This document shows positions 3,472 through 60,663 of a stretch of DNA of 64,000 bases, one piece after another. The stretch is taken from assembly GCA_963736195.1 (NCBI GenBank), contig CAVTNP010000001.1:1717068-1781067 (forward strand), read 5' to 3'. Source of the stretch: Ignavibacteriota bacterium. GTDB lineage: Bacteria; Bacteroidota; Ignavibacteria; Palsa-1295. Position numbers and translations under genes: made by a program. How positions within the stretch are numbered: the first letter of the stretch is position 1; every line of letters starts with the position of its first letter. Below the pieces are notes generated by a model that searched no databases, was not told the DNA's origin, and worked only from the letters and a program-made list of their open reading frames with translations.

Positions 3472-3507
3472 TAGAATTATATTGGAAGTACAGCGTGTTT
3501 AGCACGT

Positions 3508-3729: not shown

Positions 3730-3968
3730 AAACTCCACGCGATCTCTCTGGAAGTGATCTTATCTTTGCCCTACGCAAGTTTGGGTATGTACGTGTCAGG
3801 CAAACCGGCAGCCACGTTCAATTAGTTACTCAAGAGTATGGAGAACATCATCTAACCGTTCCATGGCATTCACCATTACGAATCGGGACGCTCAACCAGA
3901 TACTGAGCATGGTTGCCGAGCATTTTGAAATTACAAAAGGTGAAGTGTTGATGAAGATAATGGAATAA
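3726..3968 (+). CDS. hicA: HicA-family mRNA interferase toxin
   Basis: 80 aa with GSHVQL...TVPWHSPLRIGTLNQILS, matching the HicA (YcfA-like) signature GSH...TVP.H...GTL. Translationally coupled to hicB. Confidence 0.72.
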   Translation: MKTPRDLSGSDLIFALRKFGYVRVRQTGSHVQLVTQEYGEHHLTVPWHSPLRIGTLNQILSMVAEHFEITKGEVLMKIME

Positions 3969-4020
3969 CTCAGTGCAGGATGCTAAAACTGCTCGCCCGA
4001 TGCATGAAATGAGCAACCGC

Positions 4021-4068
4021 AATTCCTACGCGCTTGGGTAATGATGGGCGGTGAATGAGCCTTTGGGG
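4021..4068 (+). promoter_or_regulatory. copy 2 of the conserved ~46 nt upstream element
   Basis: See 3426..3471. Lies about 17 nt upstream of the start of the 550 aa ORF. Confidence 0.4.
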
Positions 4069-4084
4069 AAAAGATGAAAGATGA

Positions 4085-5737: not shown

Positions 5738-5763
5738 AAGCTCCGTAGGAGCGGAATAAAAGT

Positions 5764-6417
5764 ATGAATTGTACAACAGAACCGTTATCAACCATCGTTA
5801 GGGACGTAATAATGTCTATTGCAGCGATTGCTACGGCGATTGCTGCAATTGTTGGTGTCAACTGGGGTCTGCGAATTTGGAGAAAGCAATTGCGTGAAAA
5901 AGTTGAATTTGACCTTGCAAGGCGAATTCTCAGATCTCTCAACCATTTTCGAACGCTGGTTGAGCATGCCAGGTCGAGTTTGATTAGTGGGAATGAATAT
6001 CCAAAGAATGATGAATCGTTACTTTCAGAAGGCGAAGATCCAGAAATTCTTAATGAACGTGGTGTACGAAATCGCCGCGAAATGTTGTATGTGTTCCGTC
6101 ATCGAACTCGACGTGCAAGAAAGGAGTCAAATAACCTCTGGGCACTTATCGAGGAGGCAGAAGCATTTTGGGGTCACGAAATTCGCGTGCGGCTTAGAGC
6201 ACTTATTATTCATTGGAACAAGTTAGTGGCCACGATTGAGCGTCATTATTTGAATGATCCTGGTTATCAAAATGGCGAACCAATGAAGGCATTCTCAATA
6301 ATATACGCGAGTGGTGATGCTGAAGATACTTATCAAAATGAACTCGTAGAAAAACTTGAGGCAATTGCTGAGATCGTTCGAGATAAAGTGTCGTCCCTCC
6401 GGGACTCTGGCTCTTAA
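5764..6417 (+). CDS. hypothetical membrane-anchored protein (single N-terminal TM helix, charged cytoplasmic domain)
   Basis: IMSIAAIATAIAAIVGVNWGL forms a hydrophobic helix followed by RIWRKQLREK. The gene is 26 nt downstream of the 550 aa ORF and shares its AT-rich composition. Confidence 0.5.
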   Translation: MNCTTEPLSTIVRDVIMSIAAIATAIAAIVGVNWGLRIWRKQLREKVEFDLARRILRSLNHFRTLVEHARSSLISGNEYPKNDESLLSEGEDPEILNERGVRNRREMLYVFRHRTRRARKESNNLWALIEEAEAFWGHEIRVRLRALIIHWNKLVATIERHYLNDPGYQNGEPMKAFSIIYASGDAEDTYQNELVEKLEAIAEIVRDKVSSLRDSGS

Positions 6418-6420
6418 AAA

Positions 6421-6610
6421 AATCCCGCACACCCCGCGCTTCCGCACGGGGCTACAAATATGCCGCCCCGCTGGGGCTGGATTCGTAGGGACGTGCTGCG
6501 CACGTCCGCCCCGATAATTATCGACGCATTTGAGATCGTCCGAGATCTGGAATGAGCGTTTCGGGAAAATGGACGTGCGTCCGCCGCGGCGGATCCCTAC
6601 GGTTACCGGA
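6421..6610. repeat. cluster of GC-rich palindromic hairpin units (REP-like), probable terminator(s) of the island cassette
   Basis: ggacgtgcTGCgcacgtcc is a perfect hairpin at 6488..6512. tccgccgcggcgga is a 14 nt palindrome at 6572..6596. The core GTCCGC..CGGCGGATC recurs at 9396 and 9991. Confidence 0.45.
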
Positions 6611-6640
6611 TTTTCAAAAAATAATTTTGGATTTCCTTGC

Positions 6641-6672
6641 TTTTGGATTTTGGATGTTGTATCTTTGGTAGT
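6641..6672 (+). promoter_or_regulatory. candidate Bacteroidota-type promoter (TTG ... TAtcTTTG) upstream of the 16S leader
   Basis: cttgcttttggattttggatgttgTATCTTTGg matches the -33 TTG / -7 TAnnTTTG consensus described for Bacteroidota sigma-A. It lies about 1 kb upstream of the 16S gene, which is a long but possible leader. Confidence 0.2.
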
Positions 6673-6682
6673 ACATCAATGA

Positions 6683-6855
6683 GCACCTATGTCTATAAGA
6701 ATAGCCTTGACATGGCTTTCACCACGAACGAGTTCTTTAGGAAAAGACATTATGAATACTTGTTGGAACAAACGGGCGAAATTGGCTTGGAATCGAAGGT
6801 GAGAGTGGGATGATCGGGAACTCACAAGAAAGAAAAACGGCACCTATTTCTGGGG
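6683..6855 (+). repeat. copy A of a ~175-200 bp repeat (MITE-like); inverted partner at 18425..18620
   Basis: Hand alignment of A against the reverse complement of 18425..18620 gives about 80% identity. Shared blocks include gtctataagaa, gaacgagttct, ggcgaaattggct and cgggaactcacaagaaagaaaaa. Confidence 0.5.
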
Positions 6856-28611: not shown

Positions 28612-28746
28612 CCGAGCGCCGTTTTCAAGCTGATTTCGAAGCTTCCGTAATAATTCTGCAAAAAACCAAAGATTTTTTTGTAACCCAAGCGACCCTGTGC
28701 GTTCTTGTCTGAGGGAGAATGTACTCCCGTCCTAAATGAACTGATA

Positions 28747-29970
28747 ATGAAACGCAAACTTATTCTTATTGCTACGATTTTTACAATTGCAGTTACTCCA
28801 ATCGCTCAGGCTCAATGGAAGCAAACGAGCTTGGAAAATAAGAATATTAGTGTCTTGGCTGTTATGGGATCGAACATCTTTGCAGGGGCTCCCTACGGCG
28901 GCGGCATTTTTCTATCGAAGGACAGTGGTACGACTTGGAATCTGGCGAATACTGGCCTCACGAATACATACATTCTCGCGATCGCGTCGATCGGAACAAA
29001 GGTCTTTACTGGAACCGAGGGGGGCGCCTTTCTTTCGTCCGATAGCGGTAGGAGCCGGGCATCGGCTAATAATGGCCTTTTTGATTCCATTGCTCAGCAA
29101 TATGTTTATGTTAACAGTTTTGCGGTGAGCGGTCCATTCCTTTTCGCTGGAACTTGTTGTAACGGAGTTTTTTCATCGATCGATAATGGCCAAAACTGGC
29201 ACGCTGTTCACAATGGGTTAACTGGTAGGCGTATTTTCGCGCTATACGGAAGTGGCTCAGATATCCTTGCTGGAACTGCAGACAGCGGCCTATATGTATC
29301 GACGGACAACGGCCAAACCTGGGCATCGGCAAACGCGGGTCTGGGTAATAACACAGTGGCTGCCATTACATCTATGGGAACTACAGTCTTCGTTGGCACC
29401 GGTACTCCAGGTGTTTTCCTTTCTACCGATGATGGGAAAAATTGGACTTCGGATGGACTGCCGAGTACGAATATTAAGGCTTTTGCCGTTTTTGGTACGA
29501 ATCTTTTTGCTGGGACGCAAGATGGCGATGTATTTCTCTCGACGAATAGGGGTACCGACTGGACGGCAGTCAATAACGGTTTCACCAATGTCCAAGTTAG
29601 TTCGCTGGCTCTCGGTGATTCGATGCTATTTGCAGGAACATACCAATCCGGTGTTTGGCGGAGACCGCTCTCCGATTTCGGAATTAGTGCTGTCACTCCG
29701 ATCACATCGTTCAAATCCCCCCTCACCACCTACCCCAACCCCTTCACCAACAAAACGACGATAACCATTTCGCCAACAGAAAGCGGCGTAGCAGAAATAT
29801 CGGTGGTGAATTTGTTGGGTGAAGAAGTAGCGCACGTCTTTAATGGCGAGTTGGAGCCCGGAGCGCATTCCTTCACCTGGGACGCAACCGGTTTACCGGC
29901 TGGAGTGTATGAGTGCCTGGTTCATCAAAACGGTCGCACGGAGTCGCTTCCAATGGTGTTATCGAAATGA
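28747..29970 (+). CDS. secreted BNR/Asp-box repeat (beta-propeller) protein with T9SS C-terminal sorting domain
   Basis: Six S-x-D-x-G-x-T-W motifs: SKDSGTTW, SSDSGRS, SIDNGQNW, STDNGQTW, STDDGKNW, STNRGTDW. The C-terminal TTYPNPFTNKTTITIS...VYECLVHQNGRTESLPMVLSK is a T9SS CTD. Confidence 0.8.
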   Translation: MKRKLILIATIFTIAVTPIAQAQWKQTSLENKNISVLAVMGSNIFAGAPYGGGIFLSKDSGTTWNLANTGLTNTYILAIASIGTKVFTGTEGGAFLSSDSGRSRASANNGLFDSIAQQYVYVNSFAVSGPFLFAGTCCNGVFSSIDNGQNWHAVHNGLTGRRIFALYGSGSDILAGTADSGLYVSTDNGQTWASANAGLGNNTVAAITSMGTTVFVGTGTPGVFLSTDDGKNWTSDGLPSTNIKAFAVFGTNLFAGTQDGDVFLSTNRGTDWTAVNNGFTNVQVSSLALGDSMLFAGTYQSGVWRRPLSDFGISAVTPITSFKSPLTTYPNPFTNKTTITISPTESGVAEISVVNLLGEEVAHVFNGELEPGAHSFTWDATGLPAGVYECLVHQNGRTESLPMVLSK

Positions 29971-42172: not shown

Positions 42173-42832
42173 TCAACGTTCAACGATCATCGAAACGCGC
42201 TGGATTTGCGTGCCAGACTGAACCACGCACTCATACATGCCCGTAGGCATAGTGCTGGCGTCCCAGATGAAGTATTGATTCCCACTAGAAAGATTACCAC
42301 TGAACAACCGCGCGACCTCCTTTCCGAGCAGATCTACAACCGAAACGTTCACATACCCCCCATTCGACGTGAATGTGATCGTCGTGGAGTGGGAGAATGG
42401 ATTTGGGTATGCGCTGATAGAATTCCCTTCAGGTCTCGAAGGTGCAACAGTGTTTGTGGCGATCATCTCTGAAAGCGGGCGGCGCCAAACACCGTTGCTG
42501 ATAGTTCCTGCGAAGAGAAAGGAGCCGCTTACCGCCAGAGACCAAATCAACGTGTTTGGCAATCCAGTATTGACTGACGTCCAATGTGCGCCATAGTCGG
42601 ATGAAAGATAAACGCCTCCTGCTCTTGCGGAATTTTTTAAATAGTTGTCTGCAGCAAAGAGATTTGTACCACTCACCGCAAAGTTACCGACCGAAGATGT
42701 TAACGGTAACCCATTGCTTGACGCTTTCCAACTTGCGCCGTTATCGGTCGAGAGAAAGACACCTCCCGTGGTTGCGCCGTCACCCTGGCCAGTCCCGGCA
42801 AACAGATTCGTGCCAACCAACGCAAGCAGCAT
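42173..42832 (-). pseudogene. N-terminally truncated paralog of the BNR-repeat/T9SS-CTD proteins (possible gene remnant)
   Basis: Only two Asp-box motifs remain (STDNGASW, SSDYGAHW), together with an intact CTD (SAYPNPFSHSTTITF...MYECVVQSGTQIQRVSMIVER). There is no signal peptide and an in-frame stop lies just upstream. Confidence 0.45.
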
Positions 42833-42881: not shown

Positions 42882-43793
42882 TTATTTTGCAGTCGAATCG
42901 ACAGAGATGAGGGTGAAAGTGCGTTTCATATACTCTTTAGTTAGCCCTCCACTGGTTTCGGTTCGAAGAACGGGTAATCCATCGGAAGTTCGAAATTGTT
43001 CGAGACGGTCGGTTTTGCCGTGACCGGCAACGGTGCCACCAAACACCTGGTAGTTTATTGCTTTCGTTGTTAGCTCGTATATTCCTGCTTTCCTCTCGCT
43101 CAGATTCTGGCTAAGAGAATAATCGTTGCGATACGAATTATAACTCGGGCCGGGAGGGTTTAACACGACGGGACCACTGGCAGAATGATTTAATGGAATA
43201 TGAGGAGGGTTTGTCACCTCGTGACTGCTATCGTTCCATTCAGAACCACGGCGAACATTAGATCGAGCCGACCGTGGAGCAAAGTTCTTGTACAATGATC
43301 GTTTGATAGCTGTACTATCCTCGACCCCCCAGCCGTTGAAATTGGGATCTTTCATCTTTTCGTGAAAGATGCTATCATGGGTGTTGCGCCGAAGGATCAT
43401 TCCATCAAGATACATTCCATATTTATCTACCTTTACACTATAAAGTGGAATGTCTTCTCCGAGATTATGGGATACGCGTGGTCCTTCCAATACATCGTGT
43501 GTGTCATCACCGCCCTTGAAATCGTGCGTTTCGGTATTTTGCACAACGAGCGTTGCAGAGCCATCGAGATCAACATTTACGACCGCAATTTGAATATCTT
43601 CCTTGGAATCAAAATTTCCTCCTTCATAACCTGGCGGGTTATCCGGGCTCCGCATCTCATCCAGCCGCTGATAATGCAAGACAGTTCCTGCCTTGAAATG
43701 ATAGGAAAGATCGACCGGCGTGGGCGCTGTTGCCTGTGCGAGAGAGGTTTTGGCATAAGCCATCGAGATCAAGATGCAGCAAAAAAGTATTTT
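42882..43793 (-). CDS. secreted hypothetical protein
   Basis: The signal peptide is ILFCCILISMAYAKTSLAQA. The longest ORF, with its start at 43844, would overlap the tRNA-Val, so an internal GTG/ATG start is more likely. Confidence 0.45.
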   Translation of the reverse strand, partial: KILFCCILISMAYAKTSLAQATAPTPVDLSYHFKAGTVLHYQRLDEMRSPDNPPGYEGGNFDSKEDIQIAVVNVDLDGSATLVVQNTETHDFKGGDDTHDVLEGPRVSHNLGEDIPLYSVKVDKYGMYLDGMILRRNTHDSIFHEKMKDPNFNGWGVEDSTAIKRSLYKNFAPRSARSNVRRGSEWNDSSHEVTNPPHIPLNHSASGPVVLNPPGPSYNSYRNDYSLSQNLSERKAGIYELTTKAINYQVFGGTVAGHGKTDRLEQFRTSDGLPVLRTETSGGLTKEYMKRTFTLISVDSTAK

Positions 43794-43837
43794 CACAACG
43801 ATATGTTCCACAAATTCTAACTTCTCAATTGAAACCG

Positions 43838-43912
43838 TGGGCATTACAGGGTTCGAACCTGTGACCTTTCGCGTGTGAGGCGAACGCTCTGGACCAGCTG
43901 AGCTAAATGCCC
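43838..43912 (-). tRNA. tRNA-Val (anticodon CAC)
   Basis: The reverse complement folds as a cloverleaf: acceptor GGGCATT/AATGCCC, D stem GCTC/GAGC, anticodon stem TTCGC/GCGAA with loop CTCACAC, T stem ACAGG/CCTGT with loop TTCGAAC. No CCA is encoded. Confidence 0.85.
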
Positions 43913-44241
43913 GGACGGCTCCTAACTTCCAGAAATTTATGGTGGTTCCATTTTATGCGTCGTTTATGAATCTTTCTTCAGATAAATTCCCGTGAAACAG
44001 AATTAACCACTTTGTATCATTTTTTCGTGTGACATCGCGCAGCCTTTGGCGTTATACCTCTGAGGTCGATAATGCATAAGGTCCTCCCGGACGAATGATC
44101 CTTCGGAAACCGTTCGCATTATCCACCCACCGGTCGCTTATCGCATGTCGATGGGCCTGGTTTGTCAATCGTGGATGCACTCCCGTCGCCGATGGGACGC
44201 ATTCGAATCACAATCACTTTTTTATTAGTACGAGGTCTGAT

Positions 44242-45027
44242 ATGAAAAGACTAATCGGAGCACATTCACTCGCTCTTTTTGTAATATTGCCGCTTGCCTT
44301 GGCAAGCTGTTCCAACCCAAATTCTGCACCCGGAACGGTGGGAACCGGCATTACTCCGTCGGATTATTCTGCGGCAGCGTTCTTTAATACGCAAACGCTC
44401 GGGGATACCTCTTCAGTACCGTTTCCATTTTGTTTTCCCGTCCAATATTTACAGCAAAAACTTGGACTGACTGACACCCAAGTTCTGGATATTCAGAATT
44501 TGCAGGATTCTCTGCGGCTTGCATTGCAAACCCAGCTAGCCGCACTGAAAGCTGCCGGCAAGGTAAGTCCGGATTCCGTTCGCGCTTTGCGATTGGAGTA
44601 TCAAACGGATCTCTATACTGGCATAGCCGGAATACTGACCACGGCACAGCTTGCGGATCTGCAATCACTTCAGCCACCGCTTGGCCCACCAAATCAGTTT
44701 GGCCGAGGTCCAATTCCAGGGTGGGGTGGCCGAGGCCATCGAGGTCCGGATACCGTGAAAGTGCAAATTTCTGCCGCGCAGCGCGACAGCTTGGAGTTGG
44801 CTCGACTTGAAGCGACCCTTGCGACTGCCGAAGACACTTTGACGGCGACACAAATCTCGCTCATTCAGAATTTGCAAACCACGCTGATAGCGGATACAAC
44901 GCTAACGCCGCAGGGTCGGAGCGCAGAGTTCGATGCGCAACTGCAAACGATCCTTACATCGGCTCAGCTAACCGATTTACAACGGCTTGCTAATATCGGA
45001 GGTCGGCCACGCCGATGGCATCGGTAG
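44242..45027 (+). CDS. periplasmic LTXXQ-motif (Spy/CpxP-like) lipoprotein
   Basis: Lipobox LALASC. Repeated LTxxQ motifs are present: LTDTQ, LTTAQ, LTATQ, LTSAQ. Confidence 0.6.
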   Translation: MKRLIGAHSLALFVILPLALASCSNPNSAPGTVGTGITPSDYSAAAFFNTQTLGDTSSVPFPFCFPVQYLQQKLGLTDTQVLDIQNLQDSLRLALQTQLAALKAAGKVSPDSVRALRLEYQTDLYTGIAGILTTAQLADLQSLQPPLGPPNQFGRGPIPGWGGRGHRGPDTVKVQISAAQRDSLELARLEATLATAEDTLTATQISLIQNLQTTLIADTTLTPQGRSAEFDAQLQTILTSAQLTDLQRLANIGGRPRRWHR

Positions 45028-45049
45028 CCAAAGTTATTCATGACTCCGT

Positions 45050-45086
45050 ATGGGGACTCGCTGACGGCGAGTCCCCATTTTTTTTG
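45050..45086 (+). terminator. rho-independent terminator
   Basis: ggggactcgctgacggcgagtcccc followed by a T-run. Confidence 0.65.
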
Positions 45087-45310
45087 CCATTTTGAGGCCG
45101 GTTTTCCACATTTTTTTGATTTTTCCACAACCTCCAAATTTTCTTCGTATATTTGTAGAAGTTTAGAAGGAAAGTGGCTGGCAAAAATCAATTTTTGCCG
45201 TTTTTTGTCCGCCTCGATCCTATGCGTTTCGTTTAGTTAGCAGAGGGGAATTAGTTTGCACCTGTATCGGAATACTCCCCTCATTTTATCAACTTCTTCT
45301 AATCAATTCT

Positions 45311-48300
45311 ATGAGAAAAGTCCAGCGCATTCTTTGGGTGAGCATCATGCTGCTTGCTACCATCGCGTTAGCTCCACATTCTGCATTCGCGCAGGTGAGC
45401 ACCTCAACCGATGTTCCCCGCACGCTTAGTTATCAGGGCGTTCTTCAGTCGGACAATGGCGCGCCTGTCAACGGTGTCAAGCCGATGACGATTCGGCTGT
45501 ATTCGGATTCGGCAGGTTCGCAACTTGTTTGGGAAGATGAATTTGCAGTCAACGTGCAGAACGGCGTCTTCAATGTGATCCTCGGATCTCAGAAGCCGCT
45601 GCCCGATGCATCGCAGGTTACGGGTGCCCTCTGGCTGTCAACCCAGATCGGCGATTCGCTCGTCACTGGTTCGCTGACGCAGCTTTCGGCTTCGCCGTAT
45701 GCGCTCACAGTCCCGAACAATTCTATTACAGCCTCGAAAATGGGAACGGATTACGTCGGCTCGATCTCGTTGAATGGTAAGAAAATGACCGTCCGCGGAG
45801 GCGATCTCAATATTGTAACCGACGGTACCCTTCAGGCTACCTATGTGCCGACCTCCAATTCACTGCTTTTGAGCGCAACAGGTGGTGGTAATGGCAGTGG
45901 CAAGGGTAGTGGCAATGCGCTTATGAGCAATTACTGGGGTGAGTCTCCGTATCCGATGAATTACCTTGGGGATATGTGTTACAATGACCAAAACGACAAT
46001 GCCCAGACCCTTGAATGCAATTGGAGTACCCAGAAGATGTTTGTTACCGAGACGGGCACGGGAACACAGGGTTCTGCGCCAACATGGGCCACAATAAATG
46101 CAAGCGATCTTCCGCCGCTCGATAGCTGCACAGGGACGGTTCACGTCTCGAATGGTGGAACCGGCTGCACCTCCTATTCTACAGGTGACTTCTTGTATTG
46201 CTCGGGGTCAAACGCTCTTTCGCGACGCAGCATAGGTTCCGCTGGGCAAATTCTATCCTGCCAAAGCGGCCTGCCGACCTGGCATACACTCTGCGGAAGT
46301 GATCTTCCGGCTCTTGATAGCTGTCACGGCACAGTGCATGCCGCGAACGGAGGTACGGGTTGCACCACGTACAATGTCGGAGATATTTTGTATTGTTCAA
46401 CCGCAGGATCGCTTTCGCGGCTTAGCTGCGGATCAACCGGGCAGATACTGCAGTGCCAGGGCGGAGTTCCAACCTGGCAGCCCTGCCCGTCAGGAACGGT
46501 AACAGGGATTACCTTATCAACCGGATCAACAGGACTCACTGTTAATGGCGGCACGAGCGCCACTGTGAATTCCTCCGGTACATTTTCTATTGCCGGCACG
46601 CTTGCTATCACCGATGGTGGTACCGGCGCAACGACGGCCACTGCAGCGATCAACAATTTGCTTCCATCGCAGACAAGCAATGCGAACAAATACCTGCAAA
46701 CTAACGGCAGCGGAACACTTGTGTGGGCATCCGGCCCAGTTGGAGCTACAGGAGCAACTGGAGCTACCGGTGCCACAGGAGCGACAGGCCCGCAAGGACC
46801 AGCAGGCACGAATGGCGCTACCTGGTGGACTGGTACCACGGCTCCGGCCACGGGTACGGGTAGTGTCAACGATTATTATTTCGAATCCTCCAATGGATAC
46901 GTGTATGAAAAGACAGGAACGTCAACCTGGACTCAGATCGCAAATATCACTGGCCCAACAGGAGCCACTGGTGCAACAGGTGCTACCGGCCCCACGGGAG
47001 CTACCGGAGCAACAGGAGCGACTGGTGCAGCAGGAACGAATGGCCTTACTTGGTTTACTGGGACGACAACCCCAGCCTCTGGCACCGGCGCACTGAACGA
47101 CTTGTACTTTGAGTCGACAAATGGTTATGTCTATCAAAAGACTGCTTCGACAACATGGACGCAGATTGCCAACATCACCGGGCCACAAGGACCTGCTGGT
47201 ACCAATGGAACAAATGGTACTAACGGTACCAACGGAACGAATGGCACGAACGGAACGAATGGTGCCACGTGGTGGAGCGGCACCAGCACGCCATCGACAG
47301 GCACGGGCAGTGTAAACGACTACTACTTCGAATCATCGAATGGCGAAGTCTATCAGAAGACTGGCTCGACGACGTGGACCGCTTTGGCGAACATCACAGG
47401 CCCAACCGGTGCTACGGGCGCAACGGGCGCGACCGGAGCTACTGGCCCGCAAGGTCCACAAGGTATCCAGGGCGCGACCGGTGCAACTGGAGCAACGGGC
47501 GCCACTGGCCCGCAAGGTGTTCAGGGAGCCACCGGCGCAGCCGGAGCGAATGGTGCCACTTGGTGGAGCGGCACCAGCACACCGTCCACAGGAACGGGTA
47601 GCGTAAACGACTACTACTTCGAATCATCGAATGGCGAAGTCTATCAGAAGACTGGTTCGACGACGTGGACCGCATTAGCGAACATCACAGGCCCAACCGG
47701 AGCAACCGGAGCAACCGGTGCCACAGGAGCTACTGGCCCGCAAGGTCCACAAGGTATCCAGGGAGCAACCGGCGCGACTGGAGCAACGGGCGCCACTGGC
47801 CCGCAAGGTCCCCAAGGCATCCAGGGAGCAACCGGAGCTACTGGCGCGACTGGCGCAACCGGCGCCACCGGCGCAGCCGGAGCGAATGGTGCCACCTGGT
47901 GGAGCGGCACCAGCACCCCATCGACAGGCACGGGCAGCGTAAACGATTATTATTTCGAATCATCGAATGGCGAAGTCTATCAGAAGACTGGTTCGACGAC
48001 GTGGACCGCATTAGCGAACATCACAGGCCCAACCGGTGCAACTGGAGCAACGGGCGCGACCGGAGCTACTGGCCCGCAAGGTCCCCAAGGCATCCAGGGA
48101 GCGACCGGCGCGACTGGAGCAACCGGCGCCACTGGCCCGCAAGGTGTTCAGGGAGCCACCGGCGCAGCCGGAGCGAATGGTGCCACTTGGTGGAGCGGCA
48201 CCAGCACACCGTCCACAGGAACGGGTAGCGTAAACGACTACTACTTCGAATCATCGAATGGCGAAGTCTATCAGAAGACTGGTTCGACGACGTGGACCGC

Positions 48301-51300
48301 TTTGGCGAACATCACTGGCCCAACCGGTGCAACTGGCGCAACGGGCGCGACCGGAGCTACTGGCCCGCAAGGTCCGCAGGGTGTTCAGGGTGCAACAGGC
48401 GCCACTGGTCCGCAGGGTATTCAGGGAGCGACTGGAGCAACCGGTGCAGCCGGTGCGAATGGTGCAACCTGGTGGAGCGGCAGCAGCACGCCATCACCTA
48501 GCACGGGATCCAACAACGATTATTACTTCGAAACCTCAAATGGGGAAGTATATCTAAACGTTGAAGGATCGTGGACCGCTATAGCGAATATCACTGGCCC
48601 ACTGGAGCAACAGGCGCGACCGGAGCAACGGGTGCCACAGGAGCTACCGGGCCGCAGGGTCCGCAAGGTATTCAGGGAGCAACCGGAGCTACGGGAGCAA
48701 CCGGAGCAAGCGGAGCCACGGGCGCCACAGGCCCGCAGGGTCCCCAAGGTGTCCAAGGTGCGACGGGAGCCACAGGAGAAGCCGGAGCAAATGGTGCGAC
48801 CTGGTGGAGTGGTACAAGTGCACCGTCATCAAGCACCGGATCGAATAATGACTATTATTTCGAAACTTCGAATGGCGAGGTTTATGAAAAGATCAGTGGT
48901 TCCTGGGGTAATGGGATCTCCAATCTCACCGGGCCGCAGGGTCCGCAGGGTGATGTTGGCCCAACAGGCACAAATGGAACGAATGGCATCAACGGTACCA
49001 ATGGCACCAATGGCGCGACGTGGTGGTCTGGAACTTCGACACCTTCCTCCAATATCGGCTCGAATAATGATTATTATTTTGAATACTCGAACGGAGAGGT
49101 TTACGAAAAATCTTCTAACACGTGGTCAGAAGTAGCAAATATTACAGGCCCAACTGGTCCGATGGGAGCCACAGGCGCAACTGGAGCAACTGGCCCACAG
49201 GGTCCGCAAGGAGTTCAGGGCGAGACAGGCGCAACCGGAGCAACTGGCGCACAAGGTGCGACGGGAGCCACAGGTGCAACTGGAGCGACCGGCCCACAGG
49301 GTCCACAAGGTATTCAGGGTGCTACTGGAGCAACCGGTGCCACCGGCGCAGCCGGAGTGAATGGTGCCACTTGGTGGAGCGGCACCAGCACACCGTCCAC
49401 AGGAACGGGTAGCGTAAACGACTACTACTTCGAATCATCGGATGGCGAAGTCTATCAGAAGACGGGTTCGACAACTTGGACAGCTTTAGCGAACATCACA
49501 GGCCCAACCGGCGCAACAGGAGCGACGGGTGCAACTGGAGCACAGGGTCCGCAAGGCATTCAGGGTGCGACCGGACCACAGGGTCCGCAAGGCGTACAGG
49601 GTGCGACGGGTGCAACTGGCCCACAAGGTACGCAAGGCGTTCAGGGTGCGACGGGTGATACTGGCCCGCAGGGACCGCAAGGCGTGCAGGGTGCAACTGG
49701 TGCACAGGGACCACAAGGCCCTGCTGGCAACAATGGAACGAATGGAGCTACCTGGTGGTCTGGGACGACTTCACCATCCTCAAGCACCGGAGTCAACAAC
49801 GATTACTATTTCGAAACCTCGAATGGCGAGGTTTACGAGAAAATTAGTGGTGCATGGGGTAATGGAATTGCCAACCTGACTGGCCCACAAGGCCCACAAG
49901 GCGATGTTGGTCCTGCCGGATCCGATGGTACTAATGGTATCAACGGAACGAATGGAACCAATGGAGCGACTTGGTGGTCAGGAAGCTCGACACCATCATC
50001 GAGCATCGGTTCGAATAACGATTACTATTTCGAGTACTCGAATGGCGAGGTATACGAAAAGTCAGCTGGGACGTGGTCAGAGGTTGCCAATCTCACCGGT
50101 CCTGAGGGTCCACAGGGTCCTGCGGGTCCAAGTTCACTCTCAACAAGCACGAGTACCAGCGGCTCCGGATTCTTGGTTGCTAATGGTTCTAATGTGACGT
50201 TCGAGAGTGCCGTCAACCTGGCTTCTTCTGTTTCCGGTACACTTGCGGTCAGCAATGGCGGTACAGGTACTACCACAGCGCTCAGCACAGGCAGCGTCGT
50301 GTTTGCAACGTCTGGCGGGACATACACTGAGGATAATAACAACCTCTACTGGGATCAGACCAACCACCGGCTCGGTATCGGGACAACATCTCCGGGACAA
50401 TCACTCGATATTAATGGTACTGTGCAGATCGAGAACATGCCTACCGGAAGCACAACCGAAAATGTCGTGACTGCGGATGATAATGGTGTTCTCTCGGTGA
50501 TCCCGGCTTCTGATCTTATGGGAACGGGTTCCGGTCTCCAGGGCGGATCATGGCTCATTCAAGGTAATTCTGGAACTGATCCGAGCCAGAACTTTGTCGG
50601 GACGACCGATGCGAACGATCTTGTATTCCGGACCAATAATACCGAATTCATGCGAGTTCAGTCTGGCGGAAATGTCGGTATCTGGACTACAACGCCGAAT
50701 GCGGCCCTTGAAGTGGATGGATCCTTCTTAGCGTCTGGAAGCACAGGAGCGGCTCCTGCGTCAGGTGCTGGAACGCGACTGATGTGGGATCCCGATAACG
50801 CTGCATTACGCGCGGGTTCTGTCGATGGCACCCAATGGGATGAGGGATCGAGCAACATTGGCTCGAACTCGATGGCCTTTGGGTATGATGTTACGGCATC
50901 TGGTGCATACGCGTTGGCATCTGGGAATTACTCCAACGCAAGTGGCGCGAATGCCACAGCGATGGGTAATTCGGCGTCAGCGAGTGGTAATACTTCCGTA
51001 GCCATTGGATATAACACTGCGGCAGGCGGAGATTATTCTACCGCACTGGGCTATTTAACGCAGGCGAACTACAACTACTCCACCTCGATGGGTAGTGGTA
51101 CCGAAGCCAACAACCAATACGCAACCGCGATGGGTAACGGCAGCTATGCTGGCGGGAATAGTTCGACGGCGATGGGATACCAGACTCAGGCGAACGGAGA
51201 TTTCTCCACGGCTATGGGTAACGCTACGCAGGCGACTGGAGAGTATTCAACGGCTATGGGTTATGGAACCCTTGCAACGGCGCAGTCCTCTTTTGCAATT

Positions 51301-52197
51301 GGCGAACAGGGCTCGGAAGCAACTGCCGAAGCTTCGATGGCAGCGGGTATCGGCACCACTGCAGAAGCAATGGACGCGACAACATTTGGCGAAAATACTA
51401 TTGCTAACGCAGAGGGAGCCACCGCTTTCGGAAACACTACGAATGCAAGCGGATTGTACTCGGTCGCATTCGGCACTTCCACGACAACGACGGGAAGCAA
51501 TTCAGCTGCCTTTGGTGAGAATGGAACGACTGCCGGAGGAGAGGCTTCTGTGGCGATGGGTAATGATGCCCAGGCGAGCGGAGCTTATTCGCTCGCAATT
51601 GGCAATACTACCACTGCCAGCGGTTCTTCTTCATTCGCATCGGGTAACAGCAACATTGCGCAAGGTGCAAATTCGATCGCCATTGGATATAATTCTGACG
51701 CCTATGGCGACAATTCAGTCGCTATGGGAGTCGATGCCTCAACCGGCGTTGGGACGACCTATTACAACAATTCGTTCGTCTATGGTGATGGTTCTGCATC
51801 AACACTCAGTGATGCATCAAACGAATTCACCGTCCGCGCTTCGGCTGGATTCGAATTCTACGATAATGCGACCACTGCGCCAGACATGACCCTTGCAAAT
51901 GGGCAGCTCAATGTGAGTGGCACAGTCCGAGTAGGCGGCAGCATCGTTGCTACCTCAAGCAGCACGGCGCAATCGTCGGATAATGGCGTGACCGTCTCGG
52001 ATGTACCGGTCTTTATTATTTCAGCCGGTTCTACATCGGGTGCATTCGCACTGACCATGCCAAGCGGTTCGATCACCGGTGACATGATCGTCGTTATTAA
52101 TCAGGACCCGAACTACTGCGCTACCTATGGCTCGACTGCGAAAGTTGCACCGCTCGGTTCGCGCACGTTCTACTTCGACGGCAGCAACTGGCAGTAA
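45311..52197 (+). CDS. giant secreted fibrous protein (~2300 aa if the frameshift near 48600 is bridged): collagen-like G-X-Y tracts alternating with 12 copies of a ~46 aa WW...DYYFE...NGEVY...ANITGP module, NGGTG tail-fibre-like repeats, and a YadA-head-like SxAxG repeat region
   Basis: Signal peptide [28 protein letters not shown]. The two ORFs 45311..49135 and 48571..52197 are the same gene in different frames; the second ORF resumes the GATGATG collagen repeat. Approximate domain map: Cys-rich NGGTG repeats at 46080..46740, collagen/module array at 46740..50140, Hep_Hag-like repeats at 50880..51780. Confidence 0.75.
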
Positions 52198-52236: not shown

Positions 52237-52273
52237 TTCACTGGCGCGAGTTCGAAAGAACTCGCGCTTTTTT
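52237..52273 (+). terminator. rho-independent terminator
   Basis: gcgcgagttcgaaagaactcgcgc followed by T9. Confidence 0.7.
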
Positions 52274-52367: not shown

Positions 52368-54239
52368 ATGAACCGAATTCGCCTATTTTCGCTCGCACTA
52401 CTCATCACTACGTTCTCGCTACGTTCGTTCGCCCAGGGTCTCGGTTGGGACTATCAGGAACAAGCCCGCTCCCATACCACCGATCTTCAGCACGTCGAGA
52501 TGCACATCTCGTTCGATGAACCTGCCAAGAAAGTGATGGGGACGGTTCTCCAAACCCTCGCCATCCTGCCACAAAAAGAATCGGTGAACGAAGTGGTCTT
52601 CGATGCCGTGAATCTGAATATCGAGAAGGTTTGGCTCGACCAGGGTAAAGGCAAGCAGATTCCACTTACGTTCAGCACCAAGGATTCGGCGAAGCTTCAC
52701 ATTACGCTCGATCGGGTGCATCCCTATGATGTCCCATTCACGATAGGCATTCAATATTGGGCTCAGAACCCCAAGAAAGGATTGTATTTCATTCAACCTG
52801 ACACGTTCTATACACAGAAGCCCGAGCAGATCTGGACGCAAGGCGAAGGGGAAGAAAACCGGAATTGGTTACCAACTTATGACTATCCCAACGACAAGAT
52901 GACGACGGACATGTTCGTCACCGTACGTGCCGACCAGCAGGCGCTTTCGAATGGTCATCTTGTTTCGAAAGATAAGAATAAGGATGGAACCGTAACCTGG
53001 CATTGGAAGGAAGACCATCCGTATTCCACCTATCTCATTATGCTTGGAATTGGACATTATGATGTTGTTACCGATAAATGGCGTGGGAAGGATGTCGATT
53101 ATTGGGTGTATCCGGGCTGGGCCAAAGAGGCGCATCGCATATTCGGGCTGACGCCAAAAATGATCGAGTTTTATTCCGATCGCACCGGGTTCCCGTATGC
53201 ATGGGAGAAATATGCGCAGATAGCGATCGCGGATTTTACGTATGGTGGCATGGAAAACGTAAGCGCAACCACGCTCAACGATTACGTCATGTTCGATAAA
53301 CGTTCCGGCGTGGATTTCAGCAGTGAGGGGCTCATCGCCCATGAATTGGCACACCAATGGTTCGGCGATCTTGTCACATGCCGCTCATGGATCGAGATGT
53401 GGTTGAACGAATCGTTTGCAACGTATTTCGAAGCGATGTTCCGCCAATTCAACGATGGCGAGGATGAATTCGAGGAGGAAATGCAGGGTGCACAGAACGC
53501 CGGAATTGGGGCAGAGACGAGCCTCGGAAAAAAGCCCATTGTCGCGATCAATAATTACACGGCGAATCATTATCCGCGCGGCGCGGCTACGCTCAACATG
53601 ATCCGGCACATACTCGGCGACTCCGGATGGTGGCATTCGATCCATCATTACCTCGATGTCCATCAATTCCAACCCGTCGTTACTCAGGATTTCAAGATGG
53701 CGATCGAAGAAGCAACGGGTCAGAACCTCGCATGGTTTTTCGACGAATGGGTCTATAAGAGCGGTCACCCCATCTACGATGTGACCTACAACTATGACGA
53801 GGCTGCGAAGATGTTGCACATGACGGTCACGCAGACCCAAAAACACGACACCCTCACCGGCACATTCAAAATGCCCGTCGATGTGGAACTTACAATGCCC
53901 GATGGCTCGACGGTCATGCAGACGCTTCATGTTCAGGATTCTTCACAGCAGTTCGATATTCCTTCGCCGCAGAAGCCGATGATTGTTATTTTCGACAAGG
54001 GCAATACTATCATTAAGGAACTCAAGATACACAAGACCCCAGACGAGTGGATCGATCAGCTATCGCTTTCGAAACGCGCGATCGAGCGTTCGCAAGCTGC
54101 ACTCGCCATGCTGCCGGATTCTGTTGGGAAAGACCCGCGCGCATTCGAAGCATTAAAATATGCCGCAGTGCACGATGAATTTTTGGGCCGTGCGGCTCCA
54201 TGCGCTGGCGACGCTTGGATCCTGGGCCAATGCCAATAA
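52368..54239 (+). CDS. M1-family zinc aminopeptidase (catalytic portion; continues in another frame, see 54160..54852)
   Basis: Signal peptide. HELAHQWFGDLVT...WLNESFATYFE is the HExxH-x18-E M1 signature, and GGMENVS is the GAMEN-like exopeptidase motif. Confidence 0.85.
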   Translation: MNRIRLFSLALLITTFSLRSFAQGLGWDYQEQARSHTTDLQHVEMHISFDEPAKKVMGTVLQTLAILPQKESVNEVVFDAVNLNIEKVWLDQGKGKQIPLTFSTKDSAKLHITLDRVHPYDVPFTIGIQYWAQNPKKGLYFIQPDTFYTQKPEQIWTQGEGEENRNWLPTYDYPNDKMTTDMFVTVRADQQALSNGHLVSKDKNKDGTVTWHWKEDHPYSTYLIMLGIGHYDVVTDKWRGKDVDYWVYPGWAKEAHRIFGLTPKMIEFYSDRTGFPYAWEKYAQIAIADFTYGGMENVSATTLNDYVMFDKRSGVDFSSEGLIAHELAHQWFGDLVTCRSWIEMWLNESFATYFEAMFRQFNDGEDEFEEEMQGAQNAGIGAETSLGKKPIVAINNYTANHYPRGAATLNMIRHILGDSGWWHSIHHYLDVHQFQPVVTQDFKMAIEEATGQNLAWFFDEWVYKSGHPIYDVTYNYDEAAKMLHMTVTQTQKHDTLTGTFKMPVDVELTMPDGSTVMQTLHVQDSSQQFDIPSPQKPMIVIFDKGNTIIKELKIHKTPDEWIDQLSLSKRAIERSQAALAMLPDSVGKDPRAFEALKYAAVHDEFLGRAAPCAGDAWILGQCQ

Positions 54240-54852
54240 TTCGATCCTGGAACTCATACTCGATCGTTCCAGGAACGATCCGCGTGCCGATGTTCGCTCG
54301 CTGGCCATTCAACTTTTGGGGCAATCCGCATATCCCAAACCTATGGTCGAGCCGACCTTGAATGGGATCATCGCAAACGATTCCAGTTACAATGTGGTCG
54401 GCAACGCGCTCCAGGTGCTGCATTTGTACGATCCTGATCTTGCATATCAGGATGCACTGGGATACCTCAAAACAAATTCCCCTCGCGATCATATCCGGCA
54501 CGAGGCAGTCATAGTGCTCGAACATACCAAAACTCCTGCATCTTTGCAACAGCTTATTGCGCTGGTCGATACGCGTAATATTCCGAACGATTCGCACCAA
54601 TCGACTCGCAATGATATCGTCGATGCCATTAGCAAATTCGTTTCGGTGGACTCCGGCCTGGTATATCGAACATTATGGAATCTTACGATGAATGGCGACA
54701 ACGGTGTCCACGGCTCTGCGATCAACCGGCTTGCAGATATTGGGAATGCCGCAACGATGCATCAACTCGAAGCACAAGAAGCTACGCGGCCCGAGATGAA
54801 ATCGACGTATGAAGCGGCGTTGACAAAAATGCGGAAGCGGCTGGGAATGTAA
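54160..54852 (+). CDS. C-terminal HEAT-repeat domain of the M1 aminopeptidase, in a different frame (frameshift at the T5 run 54180..54184)
   Basis: Joining the frames gives ...AAVHDEF|WAVRLHALATLG..., a canonical HEAT repeat (D..W.VR..A..ALG). Further repeats follow (DPRADVRSLAIQLLG). Confidence 0.6.
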   Translation: MPQCTMNFWAVRLHALATLGSWANANNSILELILDRSRNDPRADVRSLAIQLLGQSAYPKPMVEPTLNGIIANDSSYNVVGNALQVLHLYDPDLAYQDALGYLKTNSPRDHIRHEAVIVLEHTKTPASLQQLIALVDTRNIPNDSHQSTRNDIVDAISKFVSVDSGLVYRTLWNLTMNGDNGVHGSAINRLADIGNAATMHQLEAQEATRPEMKSTYEAALTKMRKRLGM

Positions 54853-57846: not shown

Positions 57847-59166
57847 ATGGCAATCAATCCAAGTAAACTAACAGTTAAGTCGCAGGAGGCGCTGCAGGCG
57901 GCTGTCGAGATCGCAGCGAATTACGGAAATAACCAGGTAGAGCCGGAGCATTTGCTTGCCGCGCTTATTCAAGATCCCGAAGGTGTAGCAACCTCGGTGC
58001 TGCGAAAACTTGGGGTAAATATCGACCAGCTACGCGTTCGTGTGACCGGCGCGCTGGAAAAGCTTCCGAAGGTGACCGGTGCGCAGGGTGCGAATCAATT
58101 TGCCTCGAATAATCTGAACAAGCTGTTCGATGTTGCCCGCAAGGAAGCTGAAGCGCTGAAAGATGAATACGTCTCGACTGAGCATTTGTTGCTTGCATTG
58201 CTCGATGGCAGCACGGCTTCGGCCAGGCTCCTCAAGGAGCATGGTGTCACAAAAAACAGCGTGCTTACTGCACTCCAATCCGTCCGTGGCACCCAGCGTG
58301 TGACCGATCCCAATGCCGAAGAACGCTACCAATCGCTCGAAAAGTACGGACGCGACCTGACCGAAGCGGCGCGCAAAGGCAAGCTCGATCCCGTTATCGG
58401 GCGCGAGGAAGAAATCCGCCGCGTGATGCAGGTGCTATCGCGCCGCACGAAAAATAATCCCGTCCTCATCGGCGATCCGGGAGTGGGGAAGACGGCTATC
58501 GTTGAAGGCATCGCAAATCGTATCGCGTCCGGCGATGTGCCGGAGGGATTGAAAAGCAAACGCATTGTTGCGCTCGATATGGGAACGCTCGTCGCTGGAA
58601 CCAGTTTTCGCGGTCAGTTCGAGGAACGATTAAAAGCGATCGTGAAAGAAGTTGCGGAGTCCGCCGGAGAAATAATTCTATTTATAGACGAACTCCACAC
58701 GCTCATCGGCGCCGGTGCTACGCAAGGCGCGATGGATGCGGCGAACATCCTGAAACCAGCGCTTGCTCGCGGTGAATTGCACACCATCGGTGCAACCACG
58801 CTCGATGAATATCACAAGCACATTGAAAAAGATGCCGCGCTCGAACGCCGGTTCCAGCCCGTCTTTGTTGGCGAGCCAAGCGTGGAGGATACCATCTCCA
58901 TTCTGCGCGGATTGCAGGAAAAATATGAAGTGCATCACGGCGTTCGCATTCGCGATGCCGCGCTTATTGCCGCCGCGCAGCTTTCGGATCGCTATATTGC
59001 CGACCGTTTCCTTCCCGACAAAGCCATAGATCTTGTGGATGAAGCCGCCAGCAAACTCCGCATCGAAATAGATTCCATGCCCGCCGAACTCGATCAGATC
59101 GAACGGCGCATCCGGCAGTTGGAGATCGAGAGGGAGGCGTTGAAACGGGAACAGGCAGCGGCGTGA
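57847..59166 (+). pseudogene. clpB: clpB N-terminal fragment (N-domain plus NBD1 plus start of M-domain, 439 aa); gene truncated
   Basis: Clp N repeats, Walker [14 protein letters not shown], ...[44 protein letters not shown], and then a stop. Full-length ClpB is about 860 aa, and NBD2 is absent from the rest of the window. Confidence 0.7.
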
Positions 59167-59179
59167 ATCGATTAGTAGA

Positions 59180-59857
59180 TCAAAGATAGGTACTGCCCAA
59201 CGCAATGATTATCGTTGAACAAGCGACCGTTAGAACGGATGCGGTTGAATAGATGAATTTTGATCGACTGTAAAACAAGCGGTAAAACAGCAAGAGTATG
59301 AAAGCGGTCAAAAACAATCCCACAAAGTCGGCGACAACAACGGAGCTTGGATTCATTTTCCACCATGATCTTGCAATCTTGTGATCGATACCAAGCACAA
59401 ACAGAATACTCAGAAAATTGGTACTTGATTTTAGCACCCTTTCTTTATATAGGGCTTTCTCAGGTGGTGTCAACTTTATGCCTGAGAAGATGTAGTCGGT
59501 TTCCATTGGAATCAGGGTCACGAAAAAGAATTGCATTGGTAATTGAAAGGCCAAAGAGTTGTAGTCAGCCCTCAAGTAACCCAAAAGAATTATTAGAAGA
59601 TACACTATTGCAAAAACGATGATCATAATCCAATATTTCGGAATTCGCATTTGCATGTTCGATAACATCACTGCGAGAAATAGCGGTAAAAGAATGACAT
59701 GATCTAGCTGCGACGCATTCAATGATTTTCCGAAGATAATAGGGTACATCCAAAGTGTTGAGATTAGTGAAAGCAACGCAGCACACAAAATCAGATAGCT
59801 GTGAAAGTGACGATCAAGGTTCAGGGAAAGTGCCATCGGCTTTATTGTTGCTGGCAA
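59180..59857 (-). CDS. hypothetical polytopic membrane protein in an AT-rich segment abutting the clpB break
   Basis: A 225 aa ORF with about 6 hydrophobic helices. Its composition is markedly AT-richer than the flanks. Confidence 0.45.
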   Translation of the reverse strand: MPATIKPMALSLNLDRHFHSYLILCAALLSLISTLWMYPIIFGKSLNASQLDHVILLPLFLAVMLSNMQMRIPKYWIMIIVFAIVYLLIILLGYLRADYNSLAFQLPMQFFFVTLIPMETDYIFSGIKLTPPEKALYKERVLKSSTNFLSILFVLGIDHKIARSWWKMNPSSVVVADFVGLFLTAFILLLFYRLFYSRSKFIYSTASVLTVACSTIIIALGSTYL

Positions 59858-59916
59858 AACCGACTATTCACATGAGTGGTTTCGCCACTGATTCATGGTC
59901 GCATAGCGACGCAGTA

Positions 59917-60105
59917 CCCGCAGCCCAGGGTGCAGCAAGTATCGCCGACGATGCGCGCGGAACCCTGGGTTGAAGTTGCACATTTTGAATTCAAAGCCCT
60001 GAAAGGGCGTTGTAAAATCGAGCGGTCAACATCGCCCTTCCAGGGCTACAATTTCAAAATCAATCGCGACCTGGGGTTCCGCTTCGCTGCACCCCAGGCT
60101 GCGGG
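59917..60105. repeat. ~190 nt long imperfect palindrome (MITE-like, or a structured ncRNA)
   Basis: Outer arms acccgcagcccagggtgcagc / gctgcaccccaggctgcgggt. Inner arms cattttgaattcaaagccctgaaagggcg / cgcccttccagggctacaatttcaaaatc. Several gccctNNNagggc mini-hairpins are also present. Confidence 0.5.
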
Positions 60106-60663
60106 TACACCGTCCCTTCGGGACTGGGATTTATGTGATGGATGGGATTTTTGGGAGGTAGCTGTGCTTTATCACGAGGTACATTATGAGTGGAATAACC
60201 ATAGCCGAGAAAGATCACAATGTCGTTGTCACTGTGGATGTCGATATTATCGAGCGTTGGCGCATCGAGCAGGCATTGAGCTTGCTTGAGATCGCTCCGC
60301 GAGATTATTCGCATATTCCATCTATCGATCCGGAAGAGCAGGCCGAGATAGGAGCAAGCCTCTTGCGACGAACGCCCGAAGACCGAAAGTACACAGTCAT
60401 TTGCGACGGATGAGTACGTTGTGGGTTTCCATAGTCCAACGGGACGCTATGTTTTTGTGGTGTAGCACCGAGCCTTCAGGCTCGGTGTGATAATCAGCCG
60501 AACCTGAAGGTCCGACGCTACACTTCTCTTATGAATAATTTCGAATTTCTTTGGCTTCGTTATTAAAATACTTATATTGGTAGTATTATAATAGGCACCA
60601 ATGTCCGCTAGAAACAAAACTGCATAAGTTCATGAATATTTTGCATGAGTTCATGAACTCCTA

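Follow-up and report, generated by a model that had tools for sequence, protein, structure and literature searches.

Layout of the fibre gene and its collagen/module array

The subject of this report is a long fibre gene at positions 45311–52197 of a 64 kb stretch of an Ignavibacteriota chromosome (hereafter the window), which in the sequence as it stands is divided into two open reading frames (ORFs), one at 45311..49135 in frame 2 with 1,274 amino acids (aa) and one at 48571..52197 in frame 1 with 1,208 aa. A preliminary description of this DNA had reported a single protein of ~2300 aa here. Its signal peptide and its domains are indeed found, but the single product, which is conceptual and 2,295 aa long, is obtained only when a frameshift is repaired by joining the translation of 45311..48601 to that of 48601..52197, and this calls for caution in annotation, as the single giant ORF appears only after such a repair. 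All coordinates given in aa refer to the repaired protein. The features of the locus are the following.

45050–45078 (+): intrinsic terminator of the upstream LTXXQ-like lipoprotein gene, with a 13-bp stem containing 8 GC pairs, followed by T8
45124–45155 (+): candidate promoter, a sigma-70-like consensus-scan match with TAtaTTTG at 45148–45155
45311–45391 (+): Sec signal peptide, aa 1–27, assigned by inspection (n-h-c leader ending in AFA, cut before QV)
45392–45910 (+): conserved N-terminal beta-rich domain, aa 28–~200, matching NF053851 (Bdello_MAT_N); presumed cell-proximal anchor
45962–46495 (+): Cys-rich region, aa 223–392, with 13 Cys and two ~64-aa NGGTG repeats at 46103–46495
46496–46732 (+): additional NGGTG/TDGGTG fibre repeats (including TVNGGTS), aa ~396–474
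46733–48601 (+): units 1–7 of the collagen/module array, in frame 2
48599–48603 (+): frame break with one base deleted, GGCCCA-CTGG against GGCCCAACYGG in seven other units
48601–50133 (+): units 8–12 of the array, in frame 1, with a two-module block duplicated (48784–49083 and 49735–50034)
50134–50865 (+): post-array shaft, aa 1609–1852, matching the PHROG tail-fibre families 9942 and 3269
50866–51747 (+): YadA-head or Hep_Hag-type SxAxG repeats, ~290 aa, aa 1853–2146 (PF05658, E 1.7e-39, 10 stretches)
51775–52197 (+): conserved neck (FVYGDGSA…), aa 2156–~2200, then a rare C-terminal tip from ~51910 (aa ~2200–2295) and the stop
52243–52268 (+): intrinsic terminator of the fibre gene, with an 11-bp stem containing 7 GC pairs, followed by T9

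The terminators, both of them strong, enclose the entire gene, and none was found close to the frame break; the upstream one marks the 5' limit of the fibre transcription unit, and the fibre gene is monocistronic. The promoter is a candidate only, the TAtaTTTG element being in agreement with TAnnTTTG, which we take to be the Bacteroidetes-type -7 consensus. No inverted repeats of the invertible-promoter type were found flanking the gene. In the Pfam scan of the protein, Collagen was matched with E-values of 2.5e-47 and 2e-38 and YadA_head with the ten repeats listed above, which bears out the earlier likening of the SxAxG repeats to YadA heads, and no other family was significant.

The base of the fibre is rich in cysteine, with 13 of the 14 Cys of the whole protein falling within aa 223–392. 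The NGGTG repeats that had been noticed previously are present both there, as two Cys-substituted copies of ~64 aa each (aa 265–392), and in the adjoining aa ~396–474, which in the coverage profile form the most widely shared portion of the N-terminal 480 aa. The underlying repeat, NGGTG…GD[IL]LY…G.L..L..G..GQ[IV]L…G.P.W, is Cys-free in most homologues (e.g. P0004 and P0006), and this Cys-free version is common to hundreds of fibre proteins, whereas the window gene and one of its orthologues (L002, see below) carry 5–6 Cys per repeat, which suggests, at the level of sequence, a lineage-specific, disulfide-stapled base in these two.

The array that follows was described beforehand as 12 units, each of a collagen tract and a 46-aa module, and this count holds. 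The 12 modules lie at aa 504–1598, are 45–47 aa long and conform to the pattern W[WF]xG…NDYYFE…NGEVY…W…N[IL]TGP, with 20 invariant columns in their alignment (N-G-x-T-W…G…P…G…N-D-x-Y-F-E…G-x-V-Y…W…N-x-T-G-P), and neighbouring modules are spaced by a G-X-Y tract of 26–80 aa. Across aa 475–1608 as a whole, 13 such tracts with 621 residues in total alternate with the modules, X being mainly A or P and Y mainly T, Q or N. With the collagen rise of 0.286 nm per residue, the tracts alone, if helical throughout, would reach a length of about 180 nm. The tandem-repeat analysis proposed earlier was run with Tandem Repeats Finder and gave two periods, one of 291 nt in 4.8 copies and the other of 336 nt, for which 93% of positions match. 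The near-identity ascribed to the units applies to five of the 12 modules, those of units 3, 4, 5, 6 and 10, which are 90–98% identical in their DNA, and not to the others, for which the values are 48–78%; units 8–9 and 11–12 represent the duplicated two-module block.

Of the 19 sites that vary between the five young modules, 18 are synonymous and fall on the third position of a codon, and the encoded proteins are 98–100% identical, which shows purifying selection on the translated module. As this third-codon pattern is unlike that of a collapsed or duplicated assembly, it also speaks against the array being an assembly artefact, a concern that had been raised for this locus. Logan contigs from an independent run (ERR11630400) are 99.97–100% identical to the window with zero indels over 8.5 kb, and one of them covers 43888–47341, including the first 2,031 nt (677 codons) of the fibre gene, with zero indels, before it stops at 47341, the exact start of the near-identical units. 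The array itself is not an assembly artefact.

N-terminal domain, orthologues and relation to the MAT fibres

The mosaic adhesive trimer (MAT) fibres of Bdellovibrio begin with a signal peptide and a beta-rich N-domain of ~130 aa that is invariant, continue as a trimeric fibre and end in a tip that can be swapped and may or may not contain S74 (Caulton et al. 2024, PMC10769870). Their N-domain, which is without a PDB homologue, is thought to bind a cell-surface element (PMC10769870). The only non-collagen NCBIfam match of the window fibre is to the model of this domain, NF053851 (Bdello_MAT_N), at aa 28–99 with E 4.8e-6 and 26.5 bits. A homology search with aa 1–480 indicated that the N-domain is common to a limited set of proteins and the NGGTG region to hundreds. 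The N-domain relatives share the same leader, the hydrophobic stretch of which is equivalent in all ten family members of one alignment (A2), together with the motifs TIRLY.D…VWED…GVFN..LGSQ…LSASPYAL…SIT..K…DYVGSI..NG, while their shafts are wholly different and of collagen, coiled-coil or Hep_Hag-like type. Bdello_MAT_N is matched by nine of the ten close relatives and by 104 of the 121 relatives from a profile search (best E 4.5e-15), and the tips found in this set include Peptidase_S74, BclA_C (TNF-like), Collar with Gp10_C, Lcl_C, pectate-lyase-like and Gly_rich_2 domains. As delimited by its sequence, the N-domain defines a family that is found in several phyla with differing tips.

Several points weigh against placing the window fibre with the MATs. 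Its Bdello_MAT_N score of 26.5 bits falls short of the 60 bits set as the curated cutoff, and the match extends over positions 6–81 only of the 162 in the profile. The AlphaFold2 (AF2) model of the N-domain has a beta-sandwich core at aa 38–115 with good confidence (predicted local distance difference test, pLDDT, 85–93), but gives generic beta-sandwich matches only when compared with the PDB and BFVD, and the homology to MAT_N therefore rests on the hidden Markov model evidence. The window holds a single such gene, with no second copy in its 64 kb, and the AF2 model of the C-terminal 146 aa, computed with a single homologue, has a pLDDT of 35 and is unusable; two further points concern the frame break and are taken up with it below. 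In terms of classification, the sequence comparison relates the fibre distantly to the Bdellovibrio MAT subfamily and places it outside that subfamily.

The likeness in design is nonetheless extensive. As in the MATs of Bdellovibrio bacteriovorus (PMC10769870; NF053851), the signal peptide directly precedes a detectably homologous beta-rich N-domain, the long shaft is made from phage-like parts, the tip is exchangeable and across the family occurs with and without S74, and the gene is chromosomal, not prophage-borne, with no known outer-membrane anchor in its product. The differences are that the shaft of the MATs is made of intertwined beta-prisms and here of collagen, module and YadA-head elements, that a typical MAT has ~1,000 aa and this fibre 2,295 aa, about twice that length, that the Ignavibacteriota host is without a known predatory lifestyle, and that here one gene is known from the 64 kb window, with an N-domain match that is below the cutoff and extends over half of the profile. 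Supplementary Table S3 of the MAT paper already lists MATs from the FCB group, including a ‘Collagen-like’ one from a Saprospiraceae bacterium, as well as one from Omnitrophica (PMC10769870). Elsewhere, a Krumholzibacteriota metagenome-assembled genome (MAG; L006, JAFGBK010000116) carries two genes with MAT_N-like N-domains, at 3546–3788 and 6525–6818, ~3 kb apart, and such clustered paralogues hint at a putative MAT-like repertoire in that phylum.

To identify orthologues, the GTDB species genomes were scanned with a 4-sequence alignment, a 10-sequence alignment having been too divergent. Orthologues were found in three Ignavibacteriota-type MAGs (L002, L003 and L004), in which the order of the locus is LTXXQ-like gene, fibre gene, M1 peptidase (fused to HEAT in one ORF), ABC ATPase, LptD-like gene and ClpB, with the LTXXQ-like gene absent from L004. 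The conserved neighbours of the fibre gene are at 70–95% aa identity, and over all genes and MAGs compared the values for the flanking proteins run from 54 to 96%. The fibres compare as follows.

Window (repaired): 2,295 aa, 12 modules, tip as in L003 (71% identity)
L002 (uninterrupted ORF): 2,137 aa, 6 modules, tip as in L004, ending in …YLY.CV.ANTWER.ALSTW
L003 (one long collagen tract): 1,381 aa, no modules, tip as in the window
L004: 1,344 aa, 1 module, tip as in L002

These lengths and module numbers support the earlier view of a length-variable locus. L002 has the same module order as the window gene, and modules 1 and 2 are orthologous between the two genes (75% and 82%), whereas each of the remaining modules finds its closest counterpart within its own genome, from which it follows that the expansions are lineage-specific. 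The post-array shaft is conserved in all three orthologues and in P0001, and the neck is common to the three orthologues. The tip of the window and L003 has a sole other relative, P0271 (70%), among 5.8 billion proteins, and matches no Pfam, PHROG or NCBIfam family; as L003 has this tip while its flanking genes are the most divergent of the three MAGs, an exchange of tips is indicated. The search for homologues in other genomes and in prophage context, which had also been proposed, thus returned three syntenic orthologues in MAGs, and a scan of viral contigs with two peptide patterns did not detect the N-domain. The shaft range of 0–12 collagen/module units, together with the tip swaps, provides a natural comparative series for the evolution of fibre reach and specificity. 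It has to be added that the fibre of L004 (PLYO01000033) contains, at ~aa 395, a very long (GQQ/GPQ)n tract with an ambiguous residue X, so that this repeat is probably unresolved in a short-read MAG and 1,344 aa may be an underestimate.

The C-terminal half of the fibre also bears on a different reading, in which the protein would be a trimeric autotransporter or an adhesin of the type IX secretion system (T9SS) with an anchor or sorting domain too divergent to be detected. The ten YadA_head repeats (~290 aa, PF05658) are a feature shared with the YadA family of trimeric autotransporter adhesins, and the organism clearly uses the T9SS, several neighbouring genes encoding secreted proteins with its C-terminal domains (CTDs) of the Por_Secre_tail or FlgD_ig-like type (42173–42832 (−), 28705–29970 (+) and 12771–15341 (+)). 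In the fibre, however, no YadA_anchor, Por_Secre_tail or type-B CTD was detected at E ≤ 10 with Pfam or at E ≤ 0.1 with NCBIfam, by scans that did detect the CTDs in the first two of these neighbours as a positive control, in agreement with the earlier statement that neither a T9SS CTD nor an autotransporter anchor is present. PF03895 (YadA_anchor) in particular gave no match at E ≤ 10 on either the C-terminal 146 aa or the entire second half, and the NCBIfam model YadA_autotrans scored 41.7 bits against a cutoff of 750. The fibre further differs from the YadA family in lacking the YadA_anchor translocator and the stalk and neck Pfams, and in having its head near the C-terminus instead of the N-terminus. 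Above all, two unrelated C-termini occur at one and the same locus, which means that the C-terminus cannot be a conserved secretion signal and that the information for export or retention must lie in the conserved N-terminus. An autotransporter or T9SS adhesin in disguise is therefore very improbable.

Equally remote is the idea that the protein is the tail fibre of a prophage, a tailocin or an extracellular contractile injection system (eCIS) encoded elsewhere in the genome, even though the PHROG tail-fibre matches are many and genuine tail proteins of phages contain both the module and the NGGTG repeats. The fibres of phages and tailocins are put together in the cytoplasm, whereas the Sec signal peptide is conserved throughout the family of the window fibre and 13 Cys are placed in its base region. 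The larger ORFs of the window encode ribosomal protein S1, TrmO, Pol IV, RibBA, HisRS, a rhomboid protein, an MFS protein, 2-oxoacid:ferredoxin oxidoreductase, a GltD-like protein, an LptD-like protein, an ABC ATPase, ClpB and Obg, all of them ordinary chromosomal genes, and no phage, tailocin or eCIS genes were found anywhere in the 64 kb, which extends the earlier remark that no phage genes flank the fibre. The locus is stably syntenic amid housekeeping genes in four genomes, and a scan of 2.9 million viral contigs, limited to two peptide patterns, gave no occurrence of the N-domain.

The preliminary description had suggested a previously undescribed class of surface fibre, and a genuinely new class unrelated to the MATs has in its favour that the MAT_N match is sub-threshold and partial, that the module and the tip are without a Pfam or PDB counterpart, and that the 11 collagen linkers are the most among the best 150 module carriers (see below). 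Yet every component is common to known fibre families, the relationship of the N-domain is reproduced in 104 of 121 relatives, the constant base with a swappable tip follows the same logic as in the MATs, and FCB-group MATs, one of them collagen-like, are already published; the alternating design is shared as well. A new class is thus unlikely. The fibre probably belongs to the superfamily of MAT-like chimeric fibres, in which it stands out by its length and its collagen spacing. Its gene has a broken frame, and it is not, as had been suggested, a single 2,300 aa protein of a class of its own. With this, the MAT-type design, experimentally studied only in Bdellovibrio, would extend to a conserved, hypervariable chromosomal locus of Ignavibacteriota.

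The 46-aa module and the proposed fibre

The module, which could not be placed in the preliminary description, has no Pfam model in the Pfam scan, and its profile matches a single PDB sequence, a spurious capsid. On its own it does match the PHROG tail-fibre families 15437 (E 7.6e-8) and 3904, and a profile built from its 12 copies was run against 1.84 billion cluster representatives. This retrieved 4,180 proteins with a threshold of E ≤ 1e-3, or 1,169 when the threshold was set to E ≤ 1e-10, and the number of copies reaches 16 in some of them. Its carriers include GpJ-type and Mtd_N-type phage tail proteins as well as collagen-like proteins. One viral contig (L011) encodes, directly after a tape-measure gene, a GpJ-like protein of 1,027 aa (ORF 3025–6108) with 3–4 tandem modules at its end. 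A tblastn search with the module, which is a short query, against 50,697 GenBank phages gave no match at E ≤ 1e-3. Taken by its sequence relationships, the module is a genuine phage-fibre repeat, common to phage and bacterial fibres and without an entry in current domain databases or the PDB.

The 102 carriers with five or more modules have them mostly back to back, and in 28 of the 102 at least half of the linkers are collagen, for which reason the alternation of collagen and module is not unique to the window gene, although its 11 collagen linkers are the maximum among the best 150 module carriers. In the GpJ-like and Mtd-type tail proteins (e.g. L011 ORF 3025–6108; PHROG 15437 and 3904), the module shared with the window fibre has the form W-x-x-G…[DN]-x-Y-[FL]…G-x-V-Y-x-K…W and is frequently found in tandem, and frequently beside G-X-Y tracts. 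Unlike the window fibre, these proteins belong to the virion, have N-terminal domains of phage type and lack a signal peptide. A comparable arrangement has been described for the prophage fibres EPclA and EPclB of E. coli O157 (PMC3368898), in which collagen segments, with lengths that vary by multiples of three residues, are interrupted or flanked by phage tail-fibre repeats as globular nodes. EPclB has two collagen domains with a phage-fibre repeat between them, and electron micrographs show globules on flexible stalks, the globular phage-fibre repeat joining the collagen stalks (PMC3368898). Those proteins, however, are prophage-encoded side tail fibres with no signal peptide and one or two collagen domains, and they use PfN, Pf2 and PfC (PF08400, PF03406 and PF06820), none of which was detected in the window fibre.

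A further comparison can be made with the bacterial collagen-like proteins Scl1/Scl2, Lcl and BclA, with which the window fibre has in common G-X-Y tracts that match PF01391, partial NCBIfam matches and repeat-number polymorphism, and, in the case of BclA, a Thr-rich Y position. In contrast to them, it has no LPXTG anchor, Lcl_C or BclA_C in the Pfam scans, and the NCBIfam models for Lcl and SclB match only its G-X-Y region and remain far below their cutoffs (174 against 500 bits and 138 against 325 bits, respectively). Its collagen is, moreover, split by the module into 13 tracts, and we know of no description of such a collagen-splitting module in Scl1/Scl2, Lcl or BclA.

The domain composition, homologies, synteny, variability and selection on the modules are shown by the sequences; trimer formation, surface display, the adhesive role and the role of the module are inferred, and can be combined in the following model. 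The locus would encode one Sec-exported, trimeric cell-surface fibre of MAT design. Collagen and YadA-head folds are obligate trimers, and it is the 621 G-X-Y residues and the YadA-head repeats that point to a trimer in this case. The N-terminal beta-sandwich domain would dock the fibre on the cell envelope, and the disulfide-rich NGGTG base would stiffen its proximal end. In the shaft, the collagen segments would act as rigid spacers and the modules as beta elements of the phage-tail-fibre type, in the form of trimeric nodes at which each short triple helix is nucleated or brought into register, while ligand binding would fall to the YadA-like beta-roll and the rare tip. The length and reach of the shaft would be altered when its repeat units recombine unequally, and replacement of the tip would alter specificity. 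The outcome may be adhesion to particles or cells, prey or hosts possibly included.

A wider reading of the module is tentative, and we would sooner doubt it than rely on it: it may be an undescribed, very widespread trimeric ‘node’ domain that nucleates and registers short collagen triple helices in phage and bacterial fibres. If that were so, arrays of this kind would be chains in which every collagen segment is nucleated independently during folding, and unequal recombination could retune their length at will; the Ignavibacteriota locus would then present one fibre in a naturally occurring set of different lengths and tips. The module would be a reasonable target for structure determination, and possibly useful for the engineering of segmented bacterial collagens.

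The frame break and neighbouring genes

The break in the fibre gene was located by three-frame translation, in which the sense shifts from frame 2 to frame 1 at ~48601 (…ANITGP|LEQQ… against …HWP|TGATGATG…), and by aligning the junctions that follow all 12 N[IL]TGP motifs. The junction of unit 7 reads ATCACTGGCCCA-CTGGAGCA, as opposed to GGCCCAAC[C/T]GG in seven other units, with one A missing (CCCA[A]C). Frame 2 continues out of frame after 48601 up to the stop at 49135, and downstream of the break the sense frame has no stop in 1,198 codons, compared with 18 and 52 in the other two frames.

Two accounts of this deletion have to be weighed, and the preference between them is slight. We rank an error in the consensus somewhat above a real inactivating mutation; that the 1-nt deletion is real, and the gene in this genome a recently inactivated pseudogene, has a chance only a little short of even. 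Were it a pseudogene, the only secretable product would be a 1,097-aa stalk with a 178-aa out-of-frame tail, devoid of the YadA-like head and the tip. The break does stand in the assembled sequence, so that the gene is broken as sequenced, and the absence of indels over 8.5 kb against the Logan contigs implies that random consensus errors are rare; these are the two points, announced above, that count against the MAT-like reading. In addition, the M1 peptidase and ClpB genes nearby are broken too (the former at a T5 run, where T4 restores the frame, the latter after 439 aa), and no record exists of either half of the fibre as a called protein, which would fit a gene marked in the source annotation as a pseudogene. 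Look-ups of exact products, in which the halves of the M1 peptidase, the second half of the fibre and the ABC ATPase were not on record, do not discriminate between the accounts.

On the other side, the downstream frame has remained free of stops over its 1,198 codons, and the orthologues are intact, L002 with an uninterrupted ORF of 2,137 aa. The break lies inside the repeat array, which the Logan assembly did not span, and in which polishing would be weakest if the array was resolved by long reads, the long-read origin being presumed. The indels in the fibre and M1 peptidase genes are both at short homopolymers, as is typical of residual long-read error, and the M1 peptidase, likewise split here, is a single ORF in all three relatives.

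Two other explanations of the break were considered. Programmed frameshifting and classical phase variation are both unlikely and were rejected, as the break has neither an X XXY YYZ slippery site nor a long homopolymer, and changes in the number of 9-nt collagen repeats preserve the frame.

As regards the neighbours of the fibre gene, the M1 aminopeptidase gene (52368–54852) is split into a 623-aa ORF and a 230-aa ORF with HEAT repeats. The split occurs at ~54176–54181 in a T5 run (GAATTTTTGGGCC), and a T4 run would restore …DEFWAVRLHALATLG…; the gene is a continuous ORF in L002, L003 and L004. On the other flank, the upstream gene at 44095–45027 encodes repeated L-T-x-x-Q motifs and a probable lipoprotein signal (at an internal start, MKRLIG…LALASC), with no Pfam match, and its counterpart adjoins the fibre gene in L002 (72% identity) and L003 (56%). 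It is pure speculation that the LTXXQ-like protein might serve the fibre as its chaperone in the periplasm.

Two further observations concern more distant parts of the window. The ClpB gene (57847–59166) stops after 439 aa in the middle domain, with no continuation in any frame, and at its end the GC content falls abruptly from 0.55 to 0.38–0.42 (59167–60660), in a stretch that contains an unannotated membrane-protein ORF on the minus strand (59180–59857); the truncation of ClpB could reflect an insertion, a rearrangement or a chimeric join. Finally, a tRNA-Val(CAC) gene at 43837–43912 (−) overlaps the predicted start of the ORF at 42882–43844, the true start of which probably lies downstream.

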